In this document: positions 31,217-59,170 of the stretch, piece by piece | Layout: each line of letters begins with the position of its first letter | Position numbering within the stretch: position 1 is the stretch's first letter | DNA from: a virus | Lineage: Duplodnaviria; Caudoviricetes | IMG/VR virus record: IMGVR_UViG_3300028048_000045 | Coordinates: 64,001 to 128,000 of that record | Reading direction: 5' to 3' (one strand) | DNA length: 64,000 nt | Notes under the pieces: generated by a model | Told to the model about the DNA's origin: nothing | Seen by the model: only the letters and a program-made list of their open reading frames with translations | The model's database searches: none | Program-made: the position numbers and the translations under genes

Positions 31217-33355
31217 TTAAATAATCTTAGCTTTCTTTAAAGCTTTTTTCATATAACTGAAATCGTGATGAACTGTAGTTTTGAATGATGAATCATGAAT
31301 ACCATCACCAATACCTTCACGTTCAAATGAATCAATATCTTTACAAGTTTTTGAAACTTCCTGATATACCAATGCACTCAATAAATCACCTTTGAATATA
31401 GCTGTTTTAAGATTGATAACCATAAACTCAAGATTATCTTTACTAAAATCAGGATGTTTAAGAATATTGTTCTGATCTCTTGTTAAAGCATAAATAATTG
31501 GTTCCAAGAATACCATCTCTTCATTCTTTAATCCTGCTTCAATTACAAGATCAGCGAAATCATTCAATGGTGTATCAAGGTCATTAAAATACCAATTAGG
31601 TTTAGAACGTTCGATAATATTCTTAAGTTCTTTAAGATATCTTGATGTTTCAGCCGTAATATATTTAATATTAAATACTGGTGTTCCAGGTTTAATATTT
31701 GAAAGTTTCAATTCTGCTACATCTGAATCAATTGGAATATCGATAGCTTTCAAGTTGTTTCCAGAAAGCATATCTTCAGACAATGTTAAGAATGAACCAT
31801 CAAGTTTTACAACATATTCGTCTTCATATGGTTCACCATTAGCATCAATTTTCTTTGTAACGATTTTAAGATCAACAAGCATTTTAGAAACTACGCGTGT
31901 AGATCCTTCTTCGTCATCGTCATCCTCTTCATCATCATAATCGTCATAGTCATCGTATTCATCATTTCTAACACGATCAATAATGTCTTCGATATACTCT
32001 TTATCGAATATGATAGAAGTATTTTCTGGATCTTCGAGACGTTTCAAAACCAATCTATTTTCATCATTTGTGAATATAGAAAGTAAAACTTCATCATCGA
32101 ATTCTTTAGTTTTTGTACCAGCAGCATGTTTTACAGCCATTACAGCATTTGACAATTTGTTTTCAACTTCTGTAGATGTTGCACCGCCGATTCTATAAGA
32201 AGATTTAAATTCTGGCGGATTGCCGTAACAAGCTTTACATACAAGTCCTTTAACTGGATGTGCACAAGTACAAATACTTCTAAGTTTTACAGTAGTTCCG
32301 ATTAAATCAGTATCGTTCTTTGTAACTTTCTTAAGTTTACCATTATTCATAATGATATTCTTAGAAATTATTAATTCGAGATGTTTTGGAGTTTTAACTT
32401 CATAATTAATATAGTGTTTAGTTCCACAATCATTCATCTTATAATCGATACGATTATTAAGACCTGCTAAGTTTGTTTCACGTGACATGTAACCAGAAAC
32501 ACCTACGAACTTTTTCTTATAAATAAGAGCTTTCGCAGCAAGTTCCGATTCAGCAATCTGATCACCAACATTCTGTAATCCATTCAAATATGAACGTTTC
32601 ATAATATGAGGAAGAACGATGTTGTTAATAGACATACGCGGACCTACAGCAATAAACATCTGAGTAAGCTGTAATACTGACAAACAATTTGACTGTACAA
32701 ATGGGAACAAACATGAATTTTCATCTTTAAGAATGATATCAAACAATTTTTGTCCATCTTCTTTCAACTGAGCTTCGAGCTGTGCTGATGATTTAGTATC
32801 ATCAAGTGTAGTATTGAGAAGATTATCAAATTCTTTATTTCTTCCACAGAAATCAATAAGATCAATAATTGAAATTGTTGGAGAAGAAATAGTTGCCAAT
32901 AATTCAGACAATTGTTCCATTCTTTCAGTTATATGAGAAAGAATGAATGAGAAACATTCTTCGGAATTAATCTTCTTCTTTTCAATAATTGGATAGATCT
33001 TTTCCTGACAAATCTTTTCAAGATTTTTATGATAATCTTTTAAGAAGTTAACATCAATATCCTGCATCCAATCTCTTGTAATTGGAATTTTATACATGAA
33101 ATTAAATTCGAGAAAGTATAAGTTTATAAGGAACTGGAATAATGTAATTTCTACTTCTTCATCATCCTCACATATTATCTTTACAGTTTCATTTGTTGCT
33201 CTGGAATAATCATCCAGGATATAATTCTCAATTATTTCACAGAAGATATCATAATCTCGCTTGTTTGTAAAATAATCAAAAATTTCTTTTAGTTTAATAA
33301 CTAATTCCTTCTTGCATAAACTAGTAACCAATTCATTTACTTTGAAAGACAACAT
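31217..33355 (-). CDS. rpoC: RNA polymerase beta'-like subunit, C-terminal half (probably the non-virion RNAP)
   Basis: Bridge-helix SGYMSR, DCGT, Zn-site LRSICTC..VCKACYG and trigger-loop-like IGG...VMAVKH motifs; lies in the early/replication block. Confidence 0.85.
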   Translation of the reverse strand: MLSFKVNELVTSLCKKELVIKLKEIFDYFTNKRDYDIFCEIIENYILDDYSRATNETVKIICEDDEEVEITLFQFLINLYFLEFNFMYKIPITRDWMQDIDVNFLKDYHKNLEKICQEKIYPIIEKKKINSEECFSFILSHITERMEQLSELLATISSPTISIIDLIDFCGRNKEFDNLLNTTLDDTKSSAQLEAQLKEDGQKLFDIILKDENSCLFPFVQSNCLSVLQLTQMFIAVGPRMSINNIVLPHIMKRSYLNGLQNVGDQIAESELAAKALIYKKKFVGVSGYMSRETNLAGLNNRIDYKMNDCGTKHYINYEVKTPKHLELIISKNIIMNNGKLKKVTKNDTDLIGTTVKLRSICTCAHPVKGLVCKACYGNPPEFKSSYRIGGATSTEVENKLSNAVMAVKHAAGTKTKEFDDEVLLSIFTNDENRLVLKRLEDPENTSIIFDKEYIEDIIDRVRNDEYDDYDDYDDEEDDDDEEGSTRVVSKMLVDLKIVTKKIDANGEPYEDEYVVKLDGSFLTLSEDMLSGNNLKAIDIPIDSDVAELKLSNIKPGTPVFNIKYITAETSRYLKELKNIIERSKPNWYFNDLDTPLNDFADLVIEAGLKNEEMVFLEPIIYALTRDQNNILKHPDFSKDNLEFMVINLKTAIFKGDLLSALVYQEVSKTCKDIDSFEREGIGDGIHDSSFKTTVHHDFSYMKKALKKAKII

Positions 33356-37006: not shown

Positions 37007-39124
37007 TTACATTGAAATCATTGAATTCTGAGCCATATAAGCTGCACCAGTTTCAAGCTGTTTCAACTGAAGAGCTTCAAGGTCCATGTTTGGTGAAAGT
37101 AATGTAATCATATTACCTACAGTCAACAAATCACCTACAGTTTCAAGAATGATTTTGATAAGACATGCATCTGTTTCTTTTGGAACAATCAATGTTGTAC
37201 AATTGTCAGGATCATTTCCATCAAACTGTTCAATCATGTTTGTCATGATATTGTAAACAGATGGTGTTTCTTTTTCAATACATTCTCTCCATTTAGCCAT
37301 AGTTTTCTTAGAATCGCGATACATATTAAACAATGCATAACGATAACCATTACCAAATGAGAATTCAATAGATTCAAGAATCAATTTTACAATCTGACGA
37401 ACATTACTATAATTTTCAGCAGCAGTAATATTGAGTTTAGCATCTGTAATCTTCTGCATAATTTCATCAACGAGATTGTTGATATTATGCTCGATATAAT
37501 GACAAACACTGATATTACTTCCGATTGAAACTCCACCATTTTTGATAGCAGATGAAACTGCCTGAACAGCATCATCAATGATGAGCTTTCTTGCATACTT
37601 AGCATTGTCTGTACGTCCGCCACAATAGTAGTAAGTTGTACGAGACTGAAGCTTTTCAATACGCATATTAAGATCTGCAACTGTCCAATCATTGAAATGA
37701 TTTGTTGCTTTCTTAAGAGCTACAAGCTTATCATTAAGCATAGCAATTTTCTTATCAAATTCTTCTTTAACAGGATTTGTACCAATGAAGTTAACATCAG
37801 CATAACCAGCAGAAATATGTTCACATGTACCAAACATTCCTTCAATCTGTTTACAACGTGTTTCACGATCTTCTGCAAATGGAGAAAGTTTAGTATACAT
37901 TGTCTGGAATGGATTAGCACGTACCATCATTCTGAGATCATCAAATTCTGCAGCGTCAGCAATTTCTTTGTTACGAAGAACGATACAAGCGATATCGACT
38001 CTAGCTGGACGAGAATCTGGATCAGATTTAGGATCGTTAAGTTCCTGACCAAGAGAATTGTAATAAGTACCAGAAATACATTTGCGAAGATAATCTGCAA
38101 TATCTTTATCGTACTGTGGTGCAATTACAAACAATGGTCTATGCATATCAAATGCGACTGTTTGTACAATCTGTTTAAATACTGGAAGGTCTGTAGCATA
38201 AAGATTACCATCAAACATGGCAATCAATGGTTTATCAGCTTCCCATGAAGTCTTATCAGGTGTATTAGCCATAGCTTCAAGATCAAGCAATCCCATTGAA
38301 AGTACATAAGCATCGCTTTCTTTTACATATTCTTCTTCAGTATTTGAACGGAGAACAATTACATCACCGCGACCATCAAGTTTGTTTTCATAAAGTCTTG
38401 CAATTCTTTCACCAGTCAAATAATCATTGTTTGCTGAAATAGTTGCAATCTTAGAAAGCCACTTAATGATTTCTTCTTTTTCTTCTTTAGTAAGTTCATC
38501 TGATGAATTTACTTTTTTGAAAGATTTCTGATAATTTGGATTATCGCGGATGTGACTAATGATAACATCGCCACAAATCTTACAAATGTTTCGAATACCA
38601 ACTGGAGAGAATTTCCATCCACCTTCGTTAGAAGTTTTGAAAATTTCTACGAGTTTAGTATAAAGAGCATTCTGAATAGGAATACCAGATGATGTAGAGT
38701 CACCAATCTTTTCATTCATATATTCAGAAGTTTGACGAATAATTTTGAAAATAGCATTAGGAATAGGCTGTGTAAACTTCATATTCTGAAGAATTGTATA
38801 ACCATCCCTAGTATTATAAACTGGAACTTCCCGAGTATAATATGTTTGAACTAATGTGTTATCAGCATAAGGACCAATTGTGTGAGCTATGGCTGTTTCT
38901 GCAGCAGCTGAAATCTTTTTAATTTCATTAACAACCGCATCATTTTTCAAAATATTTGGGTTTGAAGATTTGTAATCCTTTGCCCCGAAACCAATATCAG
39001 AAATATTCATTTCCTGGAAATCACCACTAAATGATTCTTTAATTATACTTTCAGGAGAGTTTTCCAGTTTATTATCGATTTCATTAGCAAATTTTTCCAT
39101 TTCGGCAGAATTTATTTCTCCCAT
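37007..39124 (-). CDS. groEL: Phage-encoded GroEL-like chaperonin
   Basis: TIGPY, TRDGYTI, GDSTSS (equivalent to GDGTTT), ATISANND and DDAVQAVSSAIKNG motifs. Confidence 0.88.
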   Translation of the reverse strand: MGEINSAEMEKFANEIDNKLENSPESIIKESFSGDFQEMNISDIGFGAKDYKSSNPNILKNDAVVNEIKKISAAAETAIAHTIGPYADNTLVQTYYTREVPVYNTRDGYTILQNMKFTQPIPNAIFKIIRQTSEYMNEKIGDSTSSGIPIQNALYTKLVEIFKTSNEGGWKFSPVGIRNICKICGDVIISHIRDNPNYQKSFKKVNSSDELTKEEKEEIIKWLSKIATISANNDYLTGERIARLYENKLDGRGDVIVLRSNTEEEYVKESDAYVLSMGLLDLEAMANTPDKTSWEADKPLIAMFDGNLYATDLPVFKQIVQTVAFDMHRPLFVIAPQYDKDIADYLRKCISGTYYNSLGQELNDPKSDPDSRPARVDIACIVLRNKEIADAAEFDDLRMMVRANPFQTMYTKLSPFAEDRETRCKQIEGMFGTCEHISAGYADVNFIGTNPVKEEFDKKIAMLNDKLVALKKATNHFNDWTVADLNMRIEKLQSRTTYYYCGGRTDNAKYARKLIIDDAVQAVSSAIKNGGVSIGSNISVCHYIEHNINNLVDEIMQKITDAKLNITAAENYSNVRQIVKLILESIEFSFGNGYRYALFNMYRDSKKTMAKWRECIEKETPSVYNIMTNMIEQFDGNDPDNCTTLIVPKETDACLIKIILETVGDLLTVGNMITLLSPNMDLEALQLKQLETGAAYMAQNSMISM

Positions 39125-39483
39125 TTCCTTTCCTCCATAACTCCTTTAGAGTTTTTATTAATTGTAACAGATTTTAATTGTCCATCCTGAATATCACATT
39201 CAAGATTATGATCATCGCAATAAGATTTGATTTTATCAACATCTAACGTAGATGATTCTTTGAACTCTGCAATAACAGATTTCTTTTTATTGTTTTGGAT
39301 TACTTTAGTAATCTCTGGAACTTTATTTCTCGCTTTATTATTAGTTTCAAAATCATAAAGAGATTGATAATGATTAGCGAATTCAACATCGTATGGCGAT
39401 GCTTCAGTTCCTGTATTCGAAAGACATTCTTTAGCGATTTCAGTAATGAAATCAATGAATGTCAGATTAGATTTGCTTGCCAT
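39112..39483 (-). CDS. Hypothetical protein, translationally coupled to the chaperonin
   Basis: 123 aa; overlaps the chaperonin start; no GroES-like signature seen. Confidence 0.5.
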   Translation of the reverse strand: MASKSNLTFIDFITEIAKECLSNTGTEASPYDVEFANHYQSLYDFETNNKARNKVPEITKVIQNNKKKSVIAEFKESSTLDVDKIKSYCDDHNLECDIQDGQLKSVTINKNSKGVMEERKWEK

Positions 39484-39533: not shown

Positions 39534-39980
39534 TTAGGGTGTTTTAATGGTTGTCTTACGGTTAAATTCTTGTAACACTTTATTATCCATATTCATAACT
39601 TCGTTCCTAGTATATGCATTGATAGTTCCGTTCTTAGTAAAAGCTTCGTAAGAATTATCAATATTAGCAAACTCATTATTTACGATATTCTCAAAGTTAG
39701 GAATATCCAATTCTACCAATTGATCAAATGTGAAACGACCTTCAAGTAACTTAGAAGCATTAAGAATATTTTGCATGATTCTATCGGATTGTTTATCCAT
39801 AACATCATGCGTAACTTTTTTCTGTTTCTTCTTCATTATCACAAATAGATTATTGTTTAATATGTCGTTATTATCATCTTGATCTTCTTTGGTAGAATTA
39901 GTTGTTGTTTCTTTTCCATTCTTAGCTTTGAGTGCGGCTATTTCTTTTTCTAGTCTTTCTAGTTTCGCCGCGCGATCATA
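39534..39980 (-). CDS. -1 frameshift extension of the tail-assembly chaperone (gpGT-like C-terminal part)
   Basis: The -1 frame is open from the T8 slippery site (39980-39987) to the stop at 39534 and includes ORF 39534..39842. Confidence 0.7.
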   Translation of the reverse strand, partial: YDRAAKLERLEKEIAALKAKNGKETTTNSTKEDQDDNNDILNNNLFVIMKKKQKKVTHDVMDKQSDRIMQNILNASKLLEGRFTFDQLVELDIPNFENIVNNEFANIDNSYEAFTKNGTINAYTRNEVMNMDNKVLQEFNRKTTIKTP

Positions 39981-42031
39981 AAAAAAAGTGTTTCAGGCTC
40001 TACAGGCAATAAGCCAAGTTCTGCTCCACAAGATTCTTCAGGACATTGTTTTCCATCAATAAGGTGACGAATACCAGAAATATTCATAATTGAATTCAAA
40101 CGAGGATCGTCCATAAGTGTATTATAATCTTCTGGAGAAAGATTATAAACAGAATCAATAATACCGTCAAGATCAGTGAATCTAATGTATGAAACTTTTG
40201 TAGCATTAGACTGATCATCAACGATATGTGGAACCATGAGAGATTTGAGATAAATATATTTTCTCAATTCAATCATATAATCTGGTAAACCAAATGTTGA
40301 ATCGATTGATACGACCTGTTCTGTATCTTCATCAACATATTCAAGAGGTTTATCTCTGAATTTTTCAATAATTTCTGCAAGAGCAGCATAAGCCTGTTCA
40401 ACATAAGGAACCTGAAGTTCGTAAATGAAAGAAGAAATAGGAAGTTTCTGCTGAATACGATAAATCTTATTAGCAGATTCTACAACTTTTTCTTTCTGGA
40501 ATTCTTCATATACTTCAGCAGTTGAAGAACCGCTGATAGCTCCCTTATTAATATATTTAGCAAGCTTATCATATTCAATGTGTTTATTGAGTAAGAAACA
40601 AAGATCTTTAGAACCTACTGAAAGATCGTGTGTTGCTCCACAAGTAGCACATGTTAAACCAATAGTTGTTGGTTTCTGGAATGTAGCAGCATAAGCAGCA
40701 AAGAATAACTGTTGGAAATCTGGGAATTTGATAATTTCACCAAACAATTTATGTTTAGAAGGTTTATTTTCAAAACCAGATACAGAATAAATATGCTTAT
40801 AGAAGATATCCATCTGTTTTTCACGCTTTTCCAAGAAAAGAAGGTTTTTATTATAAATGTAATCATCTGAAGAAGGATCGAGTTCATCTACCTTTTCATC
40901 GATCTTACAAATATCTTTGATATCAACCCATTGGAAAGCAGTCATTGTAATAACTACACCAGATACAACAAATGGTACAACTGAATAACTAGGTTGTAGT
41001 GTTGGAAGTACTGTAGTCATATAAATATTCTGCTGTTCTTTCTGTGTTTTCTTAGAAATATCAGTAGCTGTAATAGAATTTGTATCTTCAAGTTTAATGT
41101 TTCTAAGAACTTTAGCTACCTTAGCTGTACGAAGTTTGAAAGCTGTTTGTACACCATCACCACCAAAATAATTATGTTCACGTGGTTCTTCAGCAGCAGC
41201 TTTTTCAATAGCAGCTTCTACTTTTTCTTTTGTATCTTCAGAAGAATCGTCAACAATTTCAACTTCTTTATTATCGGAATTATCAACTTCTTCAGAATCT
41301 TCATAGTTATTATTGAATGTATCGATTACTTTTTCAGGTGTAAGTTCATCATCATCGATTTCACCAAGACGAGCTTCATTAGCTTTTCTGATTTCAATGT
41401 TTTCTTCACGAACACGCTGATCCATATCATCGGTGATTATTTCTTTTCCAAGCTGTGATTTTTCTTCTTCTTTTTCTTTAATAACTGCAGCTTCTGCAGC
41501 AGATACAACAGAAACTTCTTTTTCAACTTTAGGTTTAGAAACAACCTGTGGTTCAGGTTCTTTAATTTCCTCTTTAGGAGGTTCTTCTTCCTTAATTTCT
41601 TTTTCTTCAACAACTGGTTCGTTTTTAACTACAGTAGTTTCTTTTTGAATTGATGGTTGTTCCACATCCCAAGGAGCATCGTCATCAGGAGTGTCATCAA
41701 CAGGACGTTTAGCTGTAATTTCGAGAGTAATATTTTTTATTTCAGGTTCAGCATTTGTAATTTTAGCATCTTTACTAAGATTATGTAATGCTTCTGAAGT
41801 AACAGGTGAAGCTTGTAATTCATCGATAGTTACACGTGGATAATCTTCTTTTTCTTCACTGACTACATCTTTAGATTCTTCCTTAGATTTAATCATCATT
41901 TCCATTTGAAGATTTTCGCGTTCGATATCAGCTTCGGATTTTGTAGGAATTGCTTCTTTAGGTACACTAGAAGCTTCCATCTTCTCAATGAAGTCTTTTT
42001 CAGTCTTCATTTCTTCAGATATCTTATCCAT
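39959..42031 (-). CDS. Tail/baseplate-hub assembly chaperone (T4 gp26-like C-terminal domain) with a long acidic N-terminus
   Basis: CATC and CPEESC Zn-ligand pairs; ends in ..PETLFF at a slippery site, as tail assembly chaperones do; aaggag RBS. Confidence 0.6.
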   Translation of the reverse strand: MDKISEEMKTEKDFIEKMEASSVPKEAIPTKSEADIERENLQMEMMIKSKEESKDVVSEEKEDYPRVTIDELQASPVTSEALHNLSKDAKITNAEPEIKNITLEITAKRPVDDTPDDDAPWDVEQPSIQKETTVVKNEPVVEEKEIKEEEPPKEEIKEPEPQVVSKPKVEKEVSVVSAAEAAVIKEKEEEKSQLGKEIITDDMDQRVREENIEIRKANEARLGEIDDDELTPEKVIDTFNNNYEDSEEVDNSDNKEVEIVDDSSEDTKEKVEAAIEKAAAEEPREHNYFGGDGVQTAFKLRTAKVAKVLRNIKLEDTNSITATDISKKTQKEQQNIYMTTVLPTLQPSYSVVPFVVSGVVITMTAFQWVDIKDICKIDEKVDELDPSSDDYIYNKNLLFLEKREKQMDIFYKHIYSVSGFENKPSKHKLFGEIIKFPDFQQLFFAAYAATFQKPTTIGLTCATCGATHDLSVGSKDLCFLLNKHIEYDKLAKYINKGAISGSSTAEVYEEFQKEKVVESANKIYRIQQKLPISSFIYELQVPYVEQAYAALAEIIEKFRDKPLEYVDEDTEQVVSIDSTFGLPDYMIELRKYIYLKSLMVPHIVDDQSNATKVSYIRFTDLDGIIDSVYNLSPEDYNTLMDDPRLNSIMNISGIRHLIDGKQCPEESCGAELGLLPVEPETLFFMIARRN

Positions 42032-42111
42032 AGGATTATATTTCTCCTTATAAAAAAAGAAACTAGTTTGTAATTAACTAGTTTCTTTTCCATATTTTTT
42101 ATAAAATATTA

Positions 42112-46171: not shown

Positions 46172-48163
46172 CTAGAATCTTATGAGTGTACTTGTGCCCA
46201 TTTTCTTAGTACTACTTCCTTCTGCTTGATATCTAGCTGGAGATAACAACAATGAAGAATACAATGATGTAATAGGCTGTAAATGTTTTTGAATCATTGA
46301 ATCTGTACGGATAAATGGAATTACCCATTCTGGTAACTTCTTAGTATTACCATTTACTGGAATAGCAAATGCTTTCAGACCAAAACTAGAAAAATCCATA
46401 CCTAAAGAATTAACTCTAAATACATTTTTTCTAATCTTTTCTTTTATATCATTGAACTTAGGATCAATTCGTTCCAAATCTTCTTCATTCATGAGATTTG
46501 TATCAAACATGTATACAGCATCTCCAGGAACGATGTAATCATCAGGATACAAAAGATTCCAAATACAACTTGCTCTTGCAGCTATAGTTCTTACAGGATC
46601 TTTGATATTGTTAATACCATTGTATCTTGTAAAAATACCAAAAGTTTTATCTCCTTCTTGAATAGATTTATCAATATGATCTTCAATCTCATGGACACCA
46701 TGTAGAATGTTTACAGGATCATACTTATTGGCTCTTAGAACCATATTCTGAAGAAGATCAATGATATGTGTAGACACATATTCATTGAGACCAGATGAAC
46801 CTAAAGAACGTCCAGTAATAGCTAACTGTGCTTCTTCAGGAATCATTTTTCCTTCCTGAATAGTCTGAATTCCTATATAATTTTTCTTTACAGGGAATAA
46901 CAGAATAATTGGGAAGAAGAATTCATTTTTCATATACATAAAGAATCTGTCTTCAGGATGGAATGAATTACAACATTCTACATAATTATGGCAGCACTCA
47001 TCGAGAAGTGTAGTAACCAAAGATACGAATATCATCGTCATTCTAATCTGTACATTCATATCATCCATAAGATTTTCTTTTCCATATATTTTCAATGTAT
47101 TCAAAACTATTTCATAAAGTGACGGCATTGTTGAATCTGTATCTCCAACAACACAACACTTTCTTTTACGAGTCTTATACTTTTCAACACGATTATAATT
47201 AATAACAGTTGCGAAAGCAAAGATTTTCATATAATCTGTAAGTTGTTCCAGATCAGTTTTCATTCCTTCTGGAATTTCATAAGGATTGATAAATTCAATT
47301 CCATTTTCAATAAGTCTATCAACCAAATCGTAAACTTTCTTATTACGTCTGATTAATTCTACAGGATTGTTTGCATAATAAAAAGCTATGCGTTTCCAAT
47401 CTGGCATCATTTCAAACATTAAGAAAGATGATTGTGTAAATTTATTAAGACTCTTTCTGATTCCAACAACATCTTTAGTCATAAGAATGAAACGAGTTCT
47501 ACAATCTTCTGGAGTAGGAATATAATCAATAATTGAAAGTGCTTCTGGAGTAAATAATGATTCTTTGATTTTAAAAATCTGATTAATCCAAGTCATTACT
47601 TCATTTACATTTTCAAATGCAAAATTTCCAGCTAAAAATCTTTCAATTGTGAATACCTGTTCAGAAATAAAGTTACGAGCTTGTGCTGGAATGGATCCAC
47701 CCATATCAATATTTGAAATGAATGAAGATTGCATTGTTGAAGCCCCGTAAATTGAGTTAGTATTAGCTTTTACCTTATTCTGTTTATTATTATATTCGCG
47801 GAAATCATCCATATTACCTGCATTTTTAGCTTCAAGCATTTTCTTCTTAAATACAGCACGAGAATCCATCCAATCGGTAATAATGAAATAACTTGCAGGG
47901 TTCCAATTCTCTGTTAAAGTACCATTTGCAAGAATATTCAATTTATCTTTTTCAATTTCCAACGGAATTGTATTTGGATCCCTTTCAAGTTGCCATTCAT
48001 ATCTATACAGATTCCTACAATGAGCTACTAATTTCTTTCCGGCTGTTTTACGTTCGACAATGTCATTCACGTAATTTTTAAGCCATTCGGCATTGATTTT
48101 TCCATTATAGGTTGTTTTAAGAGTTTCAAACACTTTCTGTTTATACTCATCAAGTAAAGTCAT
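46172..48163 (-). CDS. Family B DNA polymerase, polymerase module of the split phiKZ-like type
   Basis: Motif B QNKVKANTNSIYG, motif C VGDTDS, and KKNYIG; no exonuclease domain in this ORF. Confidence 0.85.
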   Translation of the reverse strand: MTLLDEYKQKVFETLKTTYNGKINAEWLKNYVNDIVERKTAGKKLVAHCRNLYRYEWQLERDPNTIPLEIEKDKLNILANGTLTENWNPASYFIITDWMDSRAVFKKKMLEAKNAGNMDDFREYNNKQNKVKANTNSIYGASTMQSSFISNIDMGGSIPAQARNFISEQVFTIERFLAGNFAFENVNEVMTWINQIFKIKESLFTPEALSIIDYIPTPEDCRTRFILMTKDVVGIRKSLNKFTQSSFLMFEMMPDWKRIAFYYANNPVELIRRNKKVYDLVDRLIENGIEFINPYEIPEGMKTDLEQLTDYMKIFAFATVINYNRVEKYKTRKRKCCVVGDTDSTMPSLYEIVLNTLKIYGKENLMDDMNVQIRMTMIFVSLVTTLLDECCHNYVECCNSFHPEDRFFMYMKNEFFFPIILLFPVKKNYIGIQTIQEGKMIPEEAQLAITGRSLGSSGLNEYVSTHIIDLLQNMVLRANKYDPVNILHGVHEIEDHIDKSIQEGDKTFGIFTRYNGINNIKDPVRTIAARASCIWNLLYPDDYIVPGDAVYMFDTNLMNEEDLERIDPKFNDIKEKIRKNVFRVNSLGMDFSSFGLKAFAIPVNGNTKKLPEWVIPFIRTDSMIQKHLQPITSLYSSLLLSPARYQAEGSSTKKMGTSTLIRF

Positions 48164-57484: not shown

Positions 57485-59170
57485 CTATTTAGCTACTGGT
57501 TTTGGAATCATATATGTTAAACCGTAAATACCATGTGGAATAACATTAGGGAATTCACGCATAACATTTCCATTTATACCAACAACATTTGAAATTTCTT
57601 TCATATGTTTGTAAACGTCTTCATTACCTTCTTGTGTAAATACACCTTGTGTAGAAATCTGGTCACCATCGTAATCCGCACCCATCGCAGCAAGATATGT
57701 TGAGAACATACGCATTGTATCTGTAAACATACCTTCAATATCTTCTGATGTTTTGTAATTCAAAATAGGATAACGTGGATATAATACACCATTAAAAAAA
57801 ACAGAAGTATATTCATTACAAGGAATAATATTCATAAGACCACAATAAGTATTATTATATGTGGTCAACGGATATCGTGTATTATAAATAGATTTGTTTT
57901 TAATATTATCCATAGCTACAATATAAAGTAATTCACAATATGTAAGTTCTCTATATGAACTAGGATTTTCTTCATCTTCTGTAATATCTGTTGAAAAAGA
58001 TGGTTTACCATCAACAACATTCATACGAACTGTTAATGGAATTCTAAATCCATTTTCACCTTTAAGTGTTACTTTTTCTACACGATAATATTTAGATTTT
58101 TTATAGTTGTCTAAAACATTCCTAATCGAATCTGTTGTAAATTCATCAATCCATGTACTATCAAGTGGAGCTTCGATCAATTTCTTTTGTTCAAAATCAT
58201 AATAATTGATAGATATTCTACCAGATACATAATTTTGAATCCATCTTGAAACGCCAAAAATCATAAAAGGAGCAAAAATATTTGCTGCTGTAGCTAATGG
58301 TGTTGAAGAGTGGAAGAAATCTGCTTCACACTGTGTATAGTGTTCTGTATTAAAATCTGGTGGAGAAATAACCAAACGAGCACCATAGTCTGTTGCTTTA
58401 CCAACTACAAATTTATTAGCAAAACCATCAGCACCACCAATCTTTTTCATATAAAATTCATAAATCTCATAAAGAGCATCTTGCATTTTTACATGAGAGA
58501 TTGAACGTTTTGGTTCATTTGGATCGTCCATGAATGAAATATCATCAAGATTTTTAATAATATCAGCTAAACGTAATATCTTAGCATATAACTGATTTAT
58601 AATATTTCTTTTAGAACTTCCATCAGATGAATATTTAACATCACGATACCAAGCTGGCATTATTAATAATTTGTCCCAGAAAATTTCATCTACGGTATAA
58701 GCTTTTAACCACTTTCTACGTGTTTTAGCAGCTTTACTCATATCATTTGTAATTCTCCAAGAAATATAAGGCCATGCTTCTTTCAACCAAGTAATTCCTG
58801 TACCAGTATTTTTATAAACTGCATCAGCTGGAACAGTTTCACTAGGATCAATTTTAGTAAGTTCACCAGTTTTATCGACATAGTATCTTCCGATACCAAG
58901 TTTCATATCATTTGCTATGCCTTTTTTCAATCGTTTTAAAACATAAAAAGCATGAGGATTCATAAATACATCATTTAGTCTTACCCATCCCCATTTGGTT
59001 TTACGATCTTCTGTACCAGGAGCACCAAATATTTCTTCAGAAAACATTCCTTCAGGATGTAATTCTGATGTACTAGGAACGAAGTATAAAGTTGATGTTA
59101 CTTCTTTCCAATTATTAATTTCTATATCTTTATTAGGATTAACTAGGTTAATCGACATTGAATCTAACAT
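57485..59170 (-). CDS. rpoC: RNA polymerase beta'-like catalytic subunit, N-terminal half (virion RNAP, phiKZ gp180-like)
   Basis: GMFSEEIFG, GKATDYGARLVISP, TRYP and catalytic GADYDGD motifs; late motif at 59189-59201. Confidence 0.92.
   Translation of the reverse strand: MLDSMSINLVNPNKDIEINNWKEVTSTLYFVPSTSELHPEGMFSEEIFGAPGTEDRKTKWGWVRLNDVFMNPHAFYVLKRLKKGIANDMKLGIGRYYVDKTGELTKIDPSETVPADAVYKNTGTGITWLKEAWPYISWRITNDMSKAAKTRRKWLKAYTVDEIFWDKLLIMPAWYRDVKYSSDGSSKRNIINQLYAKILRLADIIKNLDDISFMDDPNEPKRSISHVKMQDALYEIYEFYMKKIGGADGFANKFVVGKATDYGARLVISPPDFNTEHYTQCEADFFHSSTPLATAANIFAPFMIFGVSRWIQNYVSGRISINYYDFEQKKLIEAPLDSTWIDEFTTDSIRNVLDNYKKSKYYRVEKVTLKGENGFRIPLTVRMNVVDGKPSFSTDITEDEENPSSYRELTYCELLYIVAMDNIKNKSIYNTRYPLTTYNNTYCGLMNIIPCNEYTSVFFNGVLYPRYPILNYKTSEDIEGMFTDTMRMFSTYLAAMGADYDGDQISTQGVFTQEGNEDVYKHMKEISNVVGINGNVMREFPNVIPHGIYGLTYMIPKPVAK

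Follow-up and report, generated by a model that had tools for sequence, protein, structure and literature searches.

Gene X, as we call the minus-strand open reading frame (ORF) 42031..39959 of the window (a stretch of 64,000 nucleotides (nt) spanning positions 64,001 to 128,000 of the IMG/VR virus record IMGVR_UViG_3300028048_000045, Caudoviricetes), encodes a protein of 690 amino acids (aa; P0001), and programmed -1 ribosomal frameshifting on a run of eight uridines near its 3' end probably gives rise to a second form of 832 aa, in which the shared core is prolonged by a domain encoded in the -1 frame. Such a shift had been proposed from the letters of the window alone (hereafter the sequence-only reading), and the proposal is now supported by an invariant slippery run, an open -1 frame, a conserved C-terminal domain, lineages devoid of any start codon ahead of that domain and a covarying hairpin. 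By comparing sequences across the family, we have shown that the signal, the open -1 frame and the extension domain are under selection, and the recoding interpretation is thereby strongly supported by comparative evidence that reaches well beyond the window.

Slippery run, reading frames and the extension

Gene X ends in CCT GAA ACA CTT TTT TTT ATG ATC GCG CGG CGA AAC TAG, the zero-frame stop TAG being located at 39961-39959. The heptamer U_UUU_UUU within the run stands in the zero-frame X_XXY_YYZ register, and both tRNAs can re-pair in the -1 frame. This latter frame is closed by a TGA four codons ahead of the run and then stays open for 148 codons (YDRAAKLERLEKEIAALK...) up to the TAA at 39536-39534, thus containing the separately listed ORF 39534..39842, such that either a -1 shift or the insertion of a single U would produce a fusion of 684 + 148 = 832 aa. 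The gene end, the T8 at 39987-39980, the TGA ahead of the run, the 148 open codons and the fusion of about 832 aa had all been described in the sequence-only reading, and each of them was re-derived from the window sequence.

The same arrangement recurs in the relatives of gene X, whose DNA was collected from IMG/VR, JGI metagenomes, ENA and Logan assemblies and amounts to 23 distinct sequences with 33-100% aa identity to the window; a homolog search with the conserved core (residues 280-690) as query gave 156 metagenomic homologs, of which 120 were listed. The element C-TTTTTTTT-A (that is, C-T8-A; alignment A2, columns 7-16) is identical in 23/23 distinct sequences, and in 23/23 the zero frame stops 6-11 codons past the run while the -1 frame, closed 4-25 codons ahead of it, is open for 132-155 codons past it; the T-run and the open -1 frame, whose conservation in homologs the sequence-only reading had suggested checking, are therefore both kept in these relatives. 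At the protein level, 118 of the 118 full-length proteins among the 120 matches listed (of 156), down to 48% identity, end 5-12 residues past an invariant PExLFF. Elsewhere in these genes TTT makes up about 51% of the Phe codons and CTT about 43% of the Leu codons, from which usage the probability of CTT TTT TTT given the peptide LFF is about 0.1 per lineage; the invariance of CTT TTT TTT, against an expectation of about 1 in 10 lineages, argues for selection on the nucleotides themselves, beyond the peptide LFF.

Since homopolymers are error-prone and a T9 would encode the identical fusion, the arrangement could in principle reflect a sequencing or assembly error that conceals one continuous 832-aa ORF, or else a recently decayed pseudogene. 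Nevertheless, the same T8 appears across independent samples, pipelines and lineages down to 33% identity. A sequencing artefact is excluded, since these independent assemblies agree and the finished BpSp genome (a Bacillus phage) likewise carries T8; the zero-frame stop, moreover, always follows closely on the run. Consistently, no in-frame fusion of core and extension occurs among the 120 matches listed (of 156), and when 1.84 billion representative proteins were searched exhaustively by HMMER for the extension, the domain was never found fused in frame to the core, the hits being short fragments of 57-156 aa and unrelated tail-fibre-like repeat proteins. We thus assign a negligible probability to error or decay as the origin of the two frames, and the conserved arrangement with its early zero-frame stop implies that the short and the long product both matter.

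The extension itself begins with a conserved Y-[DNS]-R-A-A... and an N-terminal amphipathic helix, YDRAAKLERLEKEIAALKAK, predicted to span 20 residues, continues through a variable linker of about 40 aa that is acidic or basic and predicted to be disordered, and ends in a C-domain with the consensus QSDxIxQNILNASKLLEGRxTFxxLxxLDIPxFExxVNNEF (Table 1), which public records annotate only as a short separate ORF. A model of the extension built with AlphaFold 2 (AF2) reached a predicted local distance difference test (pLDDT) score of 68, and the extension matched no PHROG or Pfam family and no known fold. As a side observation, the motif DRIMQNILNASKLLEGRFTFDQL (extension residues 64-89; also DRIMQNILNASKLLEGRFT) resembles a 30-aa repeat, DRITxNTLNASKIVAGSITxDRM, that is present in 5-8 copies in tail-fibre-like proteins. 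Four of these proteins (P0135, P0137, P0139 and P0143) were considered as homologs of the extension and rejected, the short resemblance being attributable to chance or to a shared structural motif; three of the four carry a C-terminal Peptidase_S74 chaperone domain, and P0135 shows only a sub-threshold VbhA match.

A further possibility is that two genes are involved, the downstream ORF starting alone (at GTG 39842, ATG 39836 or ATG 39800) or by termination-reinitiation and the T-run merely coding for LFF. This explanation draws on the ATG that stands just before the C-domain in the window and its near relatives, as well as on the separate small ORFs of public records, namely g242 of Yersinia phage phiR1-37, for which a ribosome-binding site has been proposed, gp229 of Bacillus phage AR9 and S6_1160 of Staphylococcus phage S6. 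However, the Met in question (ATG ~39802-39800, extension codon 60, in the window) is not conserved, its place being taken by T, S, N, A or D in loci L008-L015, and five lineages (L010/L025, L012, L013, L014 and L019) possess no ATG, GTG or TTG whatsoever between the run and the C-domain; in L010-L014 and L038, gene callers placed nothing there. From the run onward, the -1 frame is free of stops and its protein sequence is conserved (Y[DNS]R...) without initiation of its own, the annotated starts in AR9 and S6 lie inside or after conserved sequence, and the codons used for LFF are invariant, contrary to the expectation from codon usage. Independent initiation is therefore very unlikely.

Table 1. 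Features of gene X and its surroundings (window positions, except for the cultured phages, where positions refer to the named locus)
Feature	Position	Strand	Description
Gene X, zero frame	39959..42031	minus	690 aa; acidic low-complexity N-terminal region 1-~279; conserved core ~280-684; tail MIARRN, then TAG
Slippery run U8	39980..39987	minus	heptamer U_UUU_UUU 39986..39980; C39988 before, A39979 after
Spacer AUGAUC, run to stem	39974..39979	minus	6 nt; 5-7 nt in all relatives with a hairpin
Candidate stimulatory hairpin	39932..39973	minus	5' arm GCGCGGC 39973-39967, 3' arm GCCGCAC 39938-39932, one C/A mismatch
-1-frame extension	39534..39980	minus	148 codons and TAA 39536-39534; helix, linker, C-domain (alignment A3, AF2)
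Extension C-domain (MDKQSDRIMQNILNASKLLEGRFTFDQLVELDIPNFENIVNNEF...)	39537..39800	minus	about 85 aa, helical; 15 invariant columns in A3
123-aa neighbour gene	39112..39483	minus	no Pfam or PHROG match; synteny, alignment A6; context, outside the recoding signal
GroEL-like chaperonin gene	37007..39124	minus	PHROG 5725, E 1.5e-43; Pfam Cpn60_TCP1
Small ORF after X, AR9	L040 2481-2681
Small ORF after X, S6	L041 2589-2789
Small ORF after X, BpSp	L036 3759-3899
Small ORF after X, phiR1-37	L035 3837-4004

The two-frame layout in distant and cultured relatives

Beyond the 23 sequences, the layout extends to a sister uncultured clade (L034, L038 and L033) at about 25% identity, in which the run reads ATT TTT TTT TTG (T10; L034 3467-3476) and is followed by GGAGG or GGAGA. 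The zero frame of this clade stops 3-5 codons on, and 136-137 open codons of the -1 frame lead into a C-domain homolog.

Among cultured phages, tblastn searches of 50,697 phage records at default stringency returned no match to either the 690-aa protein or the extension, and the family was found there by lax tblastn with the core (E <= 1) combined with bridging searches. It is present in Bacillus phages BpSp, AR9, PBS1, Goe21 and Internexus, in Listeria phage LPJP1, in Yersinia phage phiR1-37 and in ten Staphylococcus phages, including S6, PALS_2, MarsHill, Madawaska, Machias, AH12 and SA1. The gene order in AR9, BpSp, S6, AH12, SA1 and phiR1-37 is gene X followed by a small ORF, in some cases by a further gene of about 100 aa, and then by GroEL; X is preceded in AR9 and SA1 by a gene annotated as baseplate wedge subunit and in BpSp by one annotated as putative baseplate protein. 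The finished BpSp genome carries the exact C-T8-A, and its -1 frame continues for 86 codons without a stop, taking in the annotated gp285. The run is T5 in AR9, S6, SA1, phiR1-37 and LPJP1 and T4 in AH12; the LPJP1 record ends just past the run, and the -1 layout was consequently followed in AR9, S6, SA1, phiR1-37 and AH12, in all of which the -1 frame contains the small ORF and has no stop between it and the run.

The start codons annotated for these small ORFs are CTG in AR9 and TTG in S6, the latter inside conserved sequence. When S6 is compared with AH12 upstream of the annotated start, the -1 frame shows 63% aa identity, no stops and differences distributed 8/6/15 by codon position, with third positions prevailing, and this stretch thus evolves like coding sequence. 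The extensions of cultured phages (alignment A7; AR9, BpSp, S6, AH12, SA1 and phiR1-37) also match the profile of the window extension (A3) on the core motif, with an hhalign probability of 82% and an E value of 1e-5. The small ORFs recorded as "hypothetical protein" in GenBank are thus probably truncated annotations of the -1 extension, which would have to be re-annotated together with X as one recoded gene. The two-frame module is unannotated in every public record that we examined, and we found no report of a frameshift in the literature on jumbo phages, phiKZ, AR9/PBS1 or the GroEL neighbourhood. Given that the C-domain and the -1 layout are common to uncultured and cultured jumbo phages, the module is old.

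Downstream hairpin and the nature of the shift

A slippery heptamer, a spacer of 5-7 nt and a hairpin constitute the textbook architecture of -1 programmed ribosomal frameshifting. In alignment A2, columns 22-28 pair with columns 57-63 in a 7-bp stem that starts 6 nt past the run, and 82% of the stem cells form standard pairs, a share that drops to 18-47% once the 3' arm is displaced by 1-3 columns. Compensatory changes on both sides occur at three of the seven pairs (14 cells), and the covariation score of 0.246, compared with 0.109 for shuffled alignments, was reached in 0/500 shuffles. Pair 26-59, which joins the third positions of two Ala codons of the -1 frame, switches synonymously among G-C, A-U and G-U; the other two keep their pairing by amino-acid changes on both sides, Ala to Thr with Ala to Val at pair 24-61 and Ala to Ser with Ala to Asn or Asp at pair 27-58. 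As judged from these alignments, protein constraint cannot explain such a pattern.

Two relatives form other hairpins at this position. L032 (33% identity) possesses an unrelated, perfect 9-bp hairpin 5 nt past the run, and L019 a different 6-bp stem 7 nt past it; in L010/L025, complementary 7-nt arms (AAUCGCU/AGCGAUU) can be recognized by eye but are not favoured by the single-sequence fold (-6.3 kcal/mol, z +1.16). Rfam contains no match to the frameshift site. A Shine-Dalgarno-like stimulator upstream of the run was considered and discarded, the GGAG found 6-9 nt upstream in some relatives being a by-product of Pro-Glu codons that is absent from the window.

These elements suggest how the two forms would be made. 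Most ribosomes would stop at the TAG at 39961-39959 and release the 690-aa form, whereas a fraction would move back by one nucleotide on U_UUU_UUU (39986-39980), a site that lets both Phe-tRNAs re-pair perfectly, while the hairpin starting 6 nt downstream holds the ribosome during the slip; the slipped ribosomes would then read the -1 frame and produce the 832-aa form with its helix, flexible linker and helical domain of about 85 aa. Because both forms share the core, their ratio would be set by the RNA signal, as it is for the G/GT proteins of phage lambda. The shift is probably ribosomal rather than transcriptional. U_UUU_UUU is a recognized -1 heptamer, less shift-prone in Escherichia coli than A_AAA_AAG (PMC5009743), and this moderate shift-proneness fits a low-level shift of the G/GT type.

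Several observations nonetheless weigh against a ribosomal shift assisted by RNA structure. The window's own stem is weak (5 bp, a mismatch and 1 bp; -10.4 kcal/mol, z -0.7 versus shuffles), so that the pairing of GCGGC (39971-39967) with GCCGC (39938-39934) around a CTAG pair, as described in the sequence-only reading, does exist and yet owes its significance to the relatives; enclosed in its 28-nt loop are the zero-frame stop and an inner CUAG/CUAG mini-stem (39962-39959 / 39953-39950). Across the clade a covarying structure lies within 5-9 nt of the heptamer; past the T8 run of BpSp no hairpin is detectable, and the T10 clade likewise exhibits no clear hairpin at the canonical spacing. In these latter phages a homopolymer-only mechanism, including slippage of RNA polymerase, could act. 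Furthermore, in E. coli UUUUUUU shifts ribosomes only modestly (PMC5009743), and such homopolymers are known as sites of transcriptional slippage (PMC4066793).

Transcriptional slippage would lead to the same product with the same logic of a fixed ratio, the RNA polymerase of phage or host occasionally adding a U on the A8 template and the resulting U9 messages encoding the 832-aa protein. T8 and especially T10 fall within the range where RNA polymerases slip, BpSp combines a T8 with no downstream hairpin, and E. coli genes are poor in UUUUUUU whatever the frame, a depletion ascribed in part to transcriptional slippage by the authors who reported it (PMC4066793). The composition of the window bears on the matter from both sides. 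It holds nine A/T runs of at least eight, only two of them inside genes, a scarcity that speaks for slippage; the two are the run of gene X and a second in-register T8 at 57801-57794 on the minus strand (GTT TTT TTT AAT), inside the RNA polymerase beta-type subunit ORF 57485..59170. At this second site the -1 frame reads TAA at once, such that a slip would truncate the polymerase subunit, and the site may serve as a natural control without extension; its tolerance in such a gene speaks against T8 by itself being very error-prone in the phage.

Against slippage stands the covarying hairpin 5-7 nt past the run, an element known to act in ribosomal frameshifting but not known to act in slippage, for which the stimulating stems described so far are located upstream of the run. 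The layout is, moreover, kept in AR9, S6, SA1 and phiR1-37 with T5 and in AH12 with T4, lengths too short for known transcriptional slippage. We therefore consider polymerase slippage an unlikely source of the 832-aa form in the window; it is much more likely in the T10 clade than here, and ribosomal and transcriptional shifts at T8 and T10 are not mutually exclusive.

Core protein, known systems and genomic neighbourhood

The only family to which sequence methods assign the gene X protein is PHROG 18873, of unknown function. Two Cys pairs are invariant in the core, Cys461/Cys464 and Cys663/Cys668, and a zinc site at these positions is a reasonable inference from the sequence. When residues 280-690 were modelled with AF2 from an alignment of 23 sequences, the model scored a pLDDT of 86 and a predicted template modelling (TM) score of 0.83; neither a profile search of the sequences nor Foldseek matched the core to any PDB entry, and no experimentally solved structure of gp26 came to light. 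Against BFVD, the top Foldseek matches have 475 aa and 389 aa, which are the lengths of phiR1-37 g241 and BpSp gp286, and are followed by uncharacterised proteins of other jumbo phages, among them Erwinia phage Special G, Ralstonia phages RSF1 and RP12 and Erwinia phage phiEaH2. Further matches of 208-285 aa (E 1e-6 to 1e-3, TM by target 0.45-0.59, with predicted models on both sides) bear the annotations "Baseplate hub assembly protein, bacteriophage T4-like", "Baseplate hub subunit" and "Baseplate hub assembly chaperone", and a match in the ESM atlas belongs to a 542-aa cluster in which 14% of the members contain PF12322 T4_baseplate (TM 0.61 by query).

The type member of PF12322 is T4 gp26, whose NCBI family is named "gp26 family baseplate hub assembly chaperone" and which a review of the T4 tail lists as hub assembly chaperone (PMC3004832). 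On the basis of predicted fold and gene context, it is plausible that the core of gene X is a gp26-like baseplate-hub assembly chaperone. In agreement with a non-structural assembly role, g241 (X), g242 (extension) and g243 (GroEL) carry no such mark in the phiR1-37 record, in which g239, g240 and g244 are labelled "phage structural protein". Sequence comparisons pull the other way: P0001 has no match to PF12322 even at E <= 10, the BpSp homolog reaches 17.4 bits (E 0.004), under the 24.5-bit cut-off, and hhalign of alignment A4 against A5, which comprises 16 T4-type gp26 sequences, gives a probability of 4.5% on the CxxC knuckle only. The gp26-like assembly chaperone postulated by the sequence-only reading has thus gained a predicted fold (BFVD, ESM atlas) and a gene neighbourhood in its favour, whereas the PF12322 and profile-profile comparisons fail to bear it out.

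Comparison with known recoded genes places these features in perspective. The G/GT gene of lambda, whose product takes part in morphogenesis without entering the virion, is shifted to -1 close to its 3' end, so that a short protein is accompanied by one extended at the C-terminus, the RNA signal fixes their ratio, and the added domain is free to bind a second partner (PMC5009743). Gene X resembles this system and P2 E/E+E', tail-chaperone frameshifts of a type conserved in long-tailed phages with double-stranded DNA, in its heptamer, its nearby zero-frame stop, the shared core and the minor extended form that would result; neither core nor extension, however, belongs to a G/E-type tail-chaperone family in Pfam or PHROGs, nor did the fold searches reveal one. 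In contrast to the small G-type chaperone, the protein has a core of about 400 aa with Cys pairs and a predicted gp26-like fold, and its slip site is a U8 homopolymer (G_GGA_AAG in lambda), accompanied by a downstream hairpin in the gene X clade. Its gene is located upstream of a GroEL-like gene rather than of a tape-measure gene, a situation common to all related loci that agrees with the earlier remark that no tape-measure gene adjoins it, and in AR9 and SA1 it lies downstream of the gene annotated as baseplate wedge subunit.

With T4 gp26, the protein shares two invariant Cys pairs far apart (C82/C84 and C187/C190 in T4), and just as T4 gene 26 adjoins gene 25, the X homologs of AR9 and SA1 adjoin the annotated wedge subunit gene. 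The core of gene X is, by contrast, twice as long, is preceded by a 280-aa acidic N-terminal region and lacks any sequence-level match to gp26. The T4 record (L039 7803-8429) also presents gene 26 with two nested products in the same frame, 26 (208 aa) and 26' (95 aa); there the second form arises by internal in-frame initiation and shares the C-terminus, whereas in gene X it would arise by frameshifting and share the N-terminus. In dnaX (tau/gamma), the heptamer, the hairpin at 5-7 nt, the stop soon after and the two forms in a set ratio are all alike; unlike in gene X, where the shifted frame adds 148 residues and yields the long form, the shifted frame of dnaX ends at once and yields the short one, and the window has no conserved upstream Shine-Dalgarno-like stimulator.

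We tentatively put forward as one possibility that the frameshift is ancestral to the AR9/PBS1, S6 and phiR1-37 jumbo phages and their uncultured relatives from gut and rumen, that it works even at T4-T5 by single-tRNA P-site slippage (on CUU UUU CGG in S6, for instance), and that the gp26-like chaperone is the T4-type, jumbo-phage counterpart of lambda G/GT. The C-domain obtained by frameshifting only would then be an adaptor bringing a partner in a fixed sub-stoichiometric amount, a role suggested by the flexible linker and the small helical domain; the partner could be a component of the hub or the tape measure, or else the phage GroEL two genes downstream.

The source of the window is a jumbo phage of the gut, with split RNA polymerase beta-type subunits encoded at 31217..33355 and 57485..59170 and a divergent family-B DNA polymerase gene at 46172..48163. 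Two genes downstream of the run stands the GroEL-like gene, a position that is kept in all related loci and makes this gene the conserved neighbour of X. In the uncultured clade the 123-aa protein, which could be a co-chaperone or a client, is always encoded between the recoded gene and the GroEL-like gene, and ORFs of 85-133 aa fill its slot in most related loci, with the exception of phiR1-37, where a terminator is annotated after the extension ORF and before GroEL. The 244-aa gene upstream of X has no family match in Pfam or PHROGs, and it was rejected as an equivalent of the AR9-type protein annotated as baseplate wedge subunit for want of detectable similarity. Directly upstream of the X start, at 42046-42090 on the minus strand, a hairpin (GAAACTAGTT...AACTAGTTTC) followed by a T-run looks like a terminator for the 244-aa gene, which suggests that gene X may start its own transcription unit.

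These findings do not only add a deeply conserved recoding site, in a protein family for which none had been described, to the programmed frameshifts of phage assembly genes, but also affect the annotation of AR9, PBS1, Goe21, BpSp, S6 and other Staphylococcus phages and phiR1-37, in whose records the extension figures as a tiny ORF of its own, seemingly unrelated and oddly started. The natural series of T4, T5, T8 and T10 runs, with and without hairpin, lends itself to the question of how homopolymer length and RNA structure trade off, and the frameshift is directly testable in the tractable phages AR9 or PBS1 of Bacillus subtilis and phiR1-37 of Yersinia. That gene X is constantly linked to a GroEL encoded by the phage itself points to a chaperone module for morphogenesis. 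More generally, the site offers a handle on the poorly understood assembly of the baseplate hub, for which two forms of a gp26-type protein would be required in fixed proportion, as in lambda G/GT, a similar end being reached in T4 by internal initiation (26/26').

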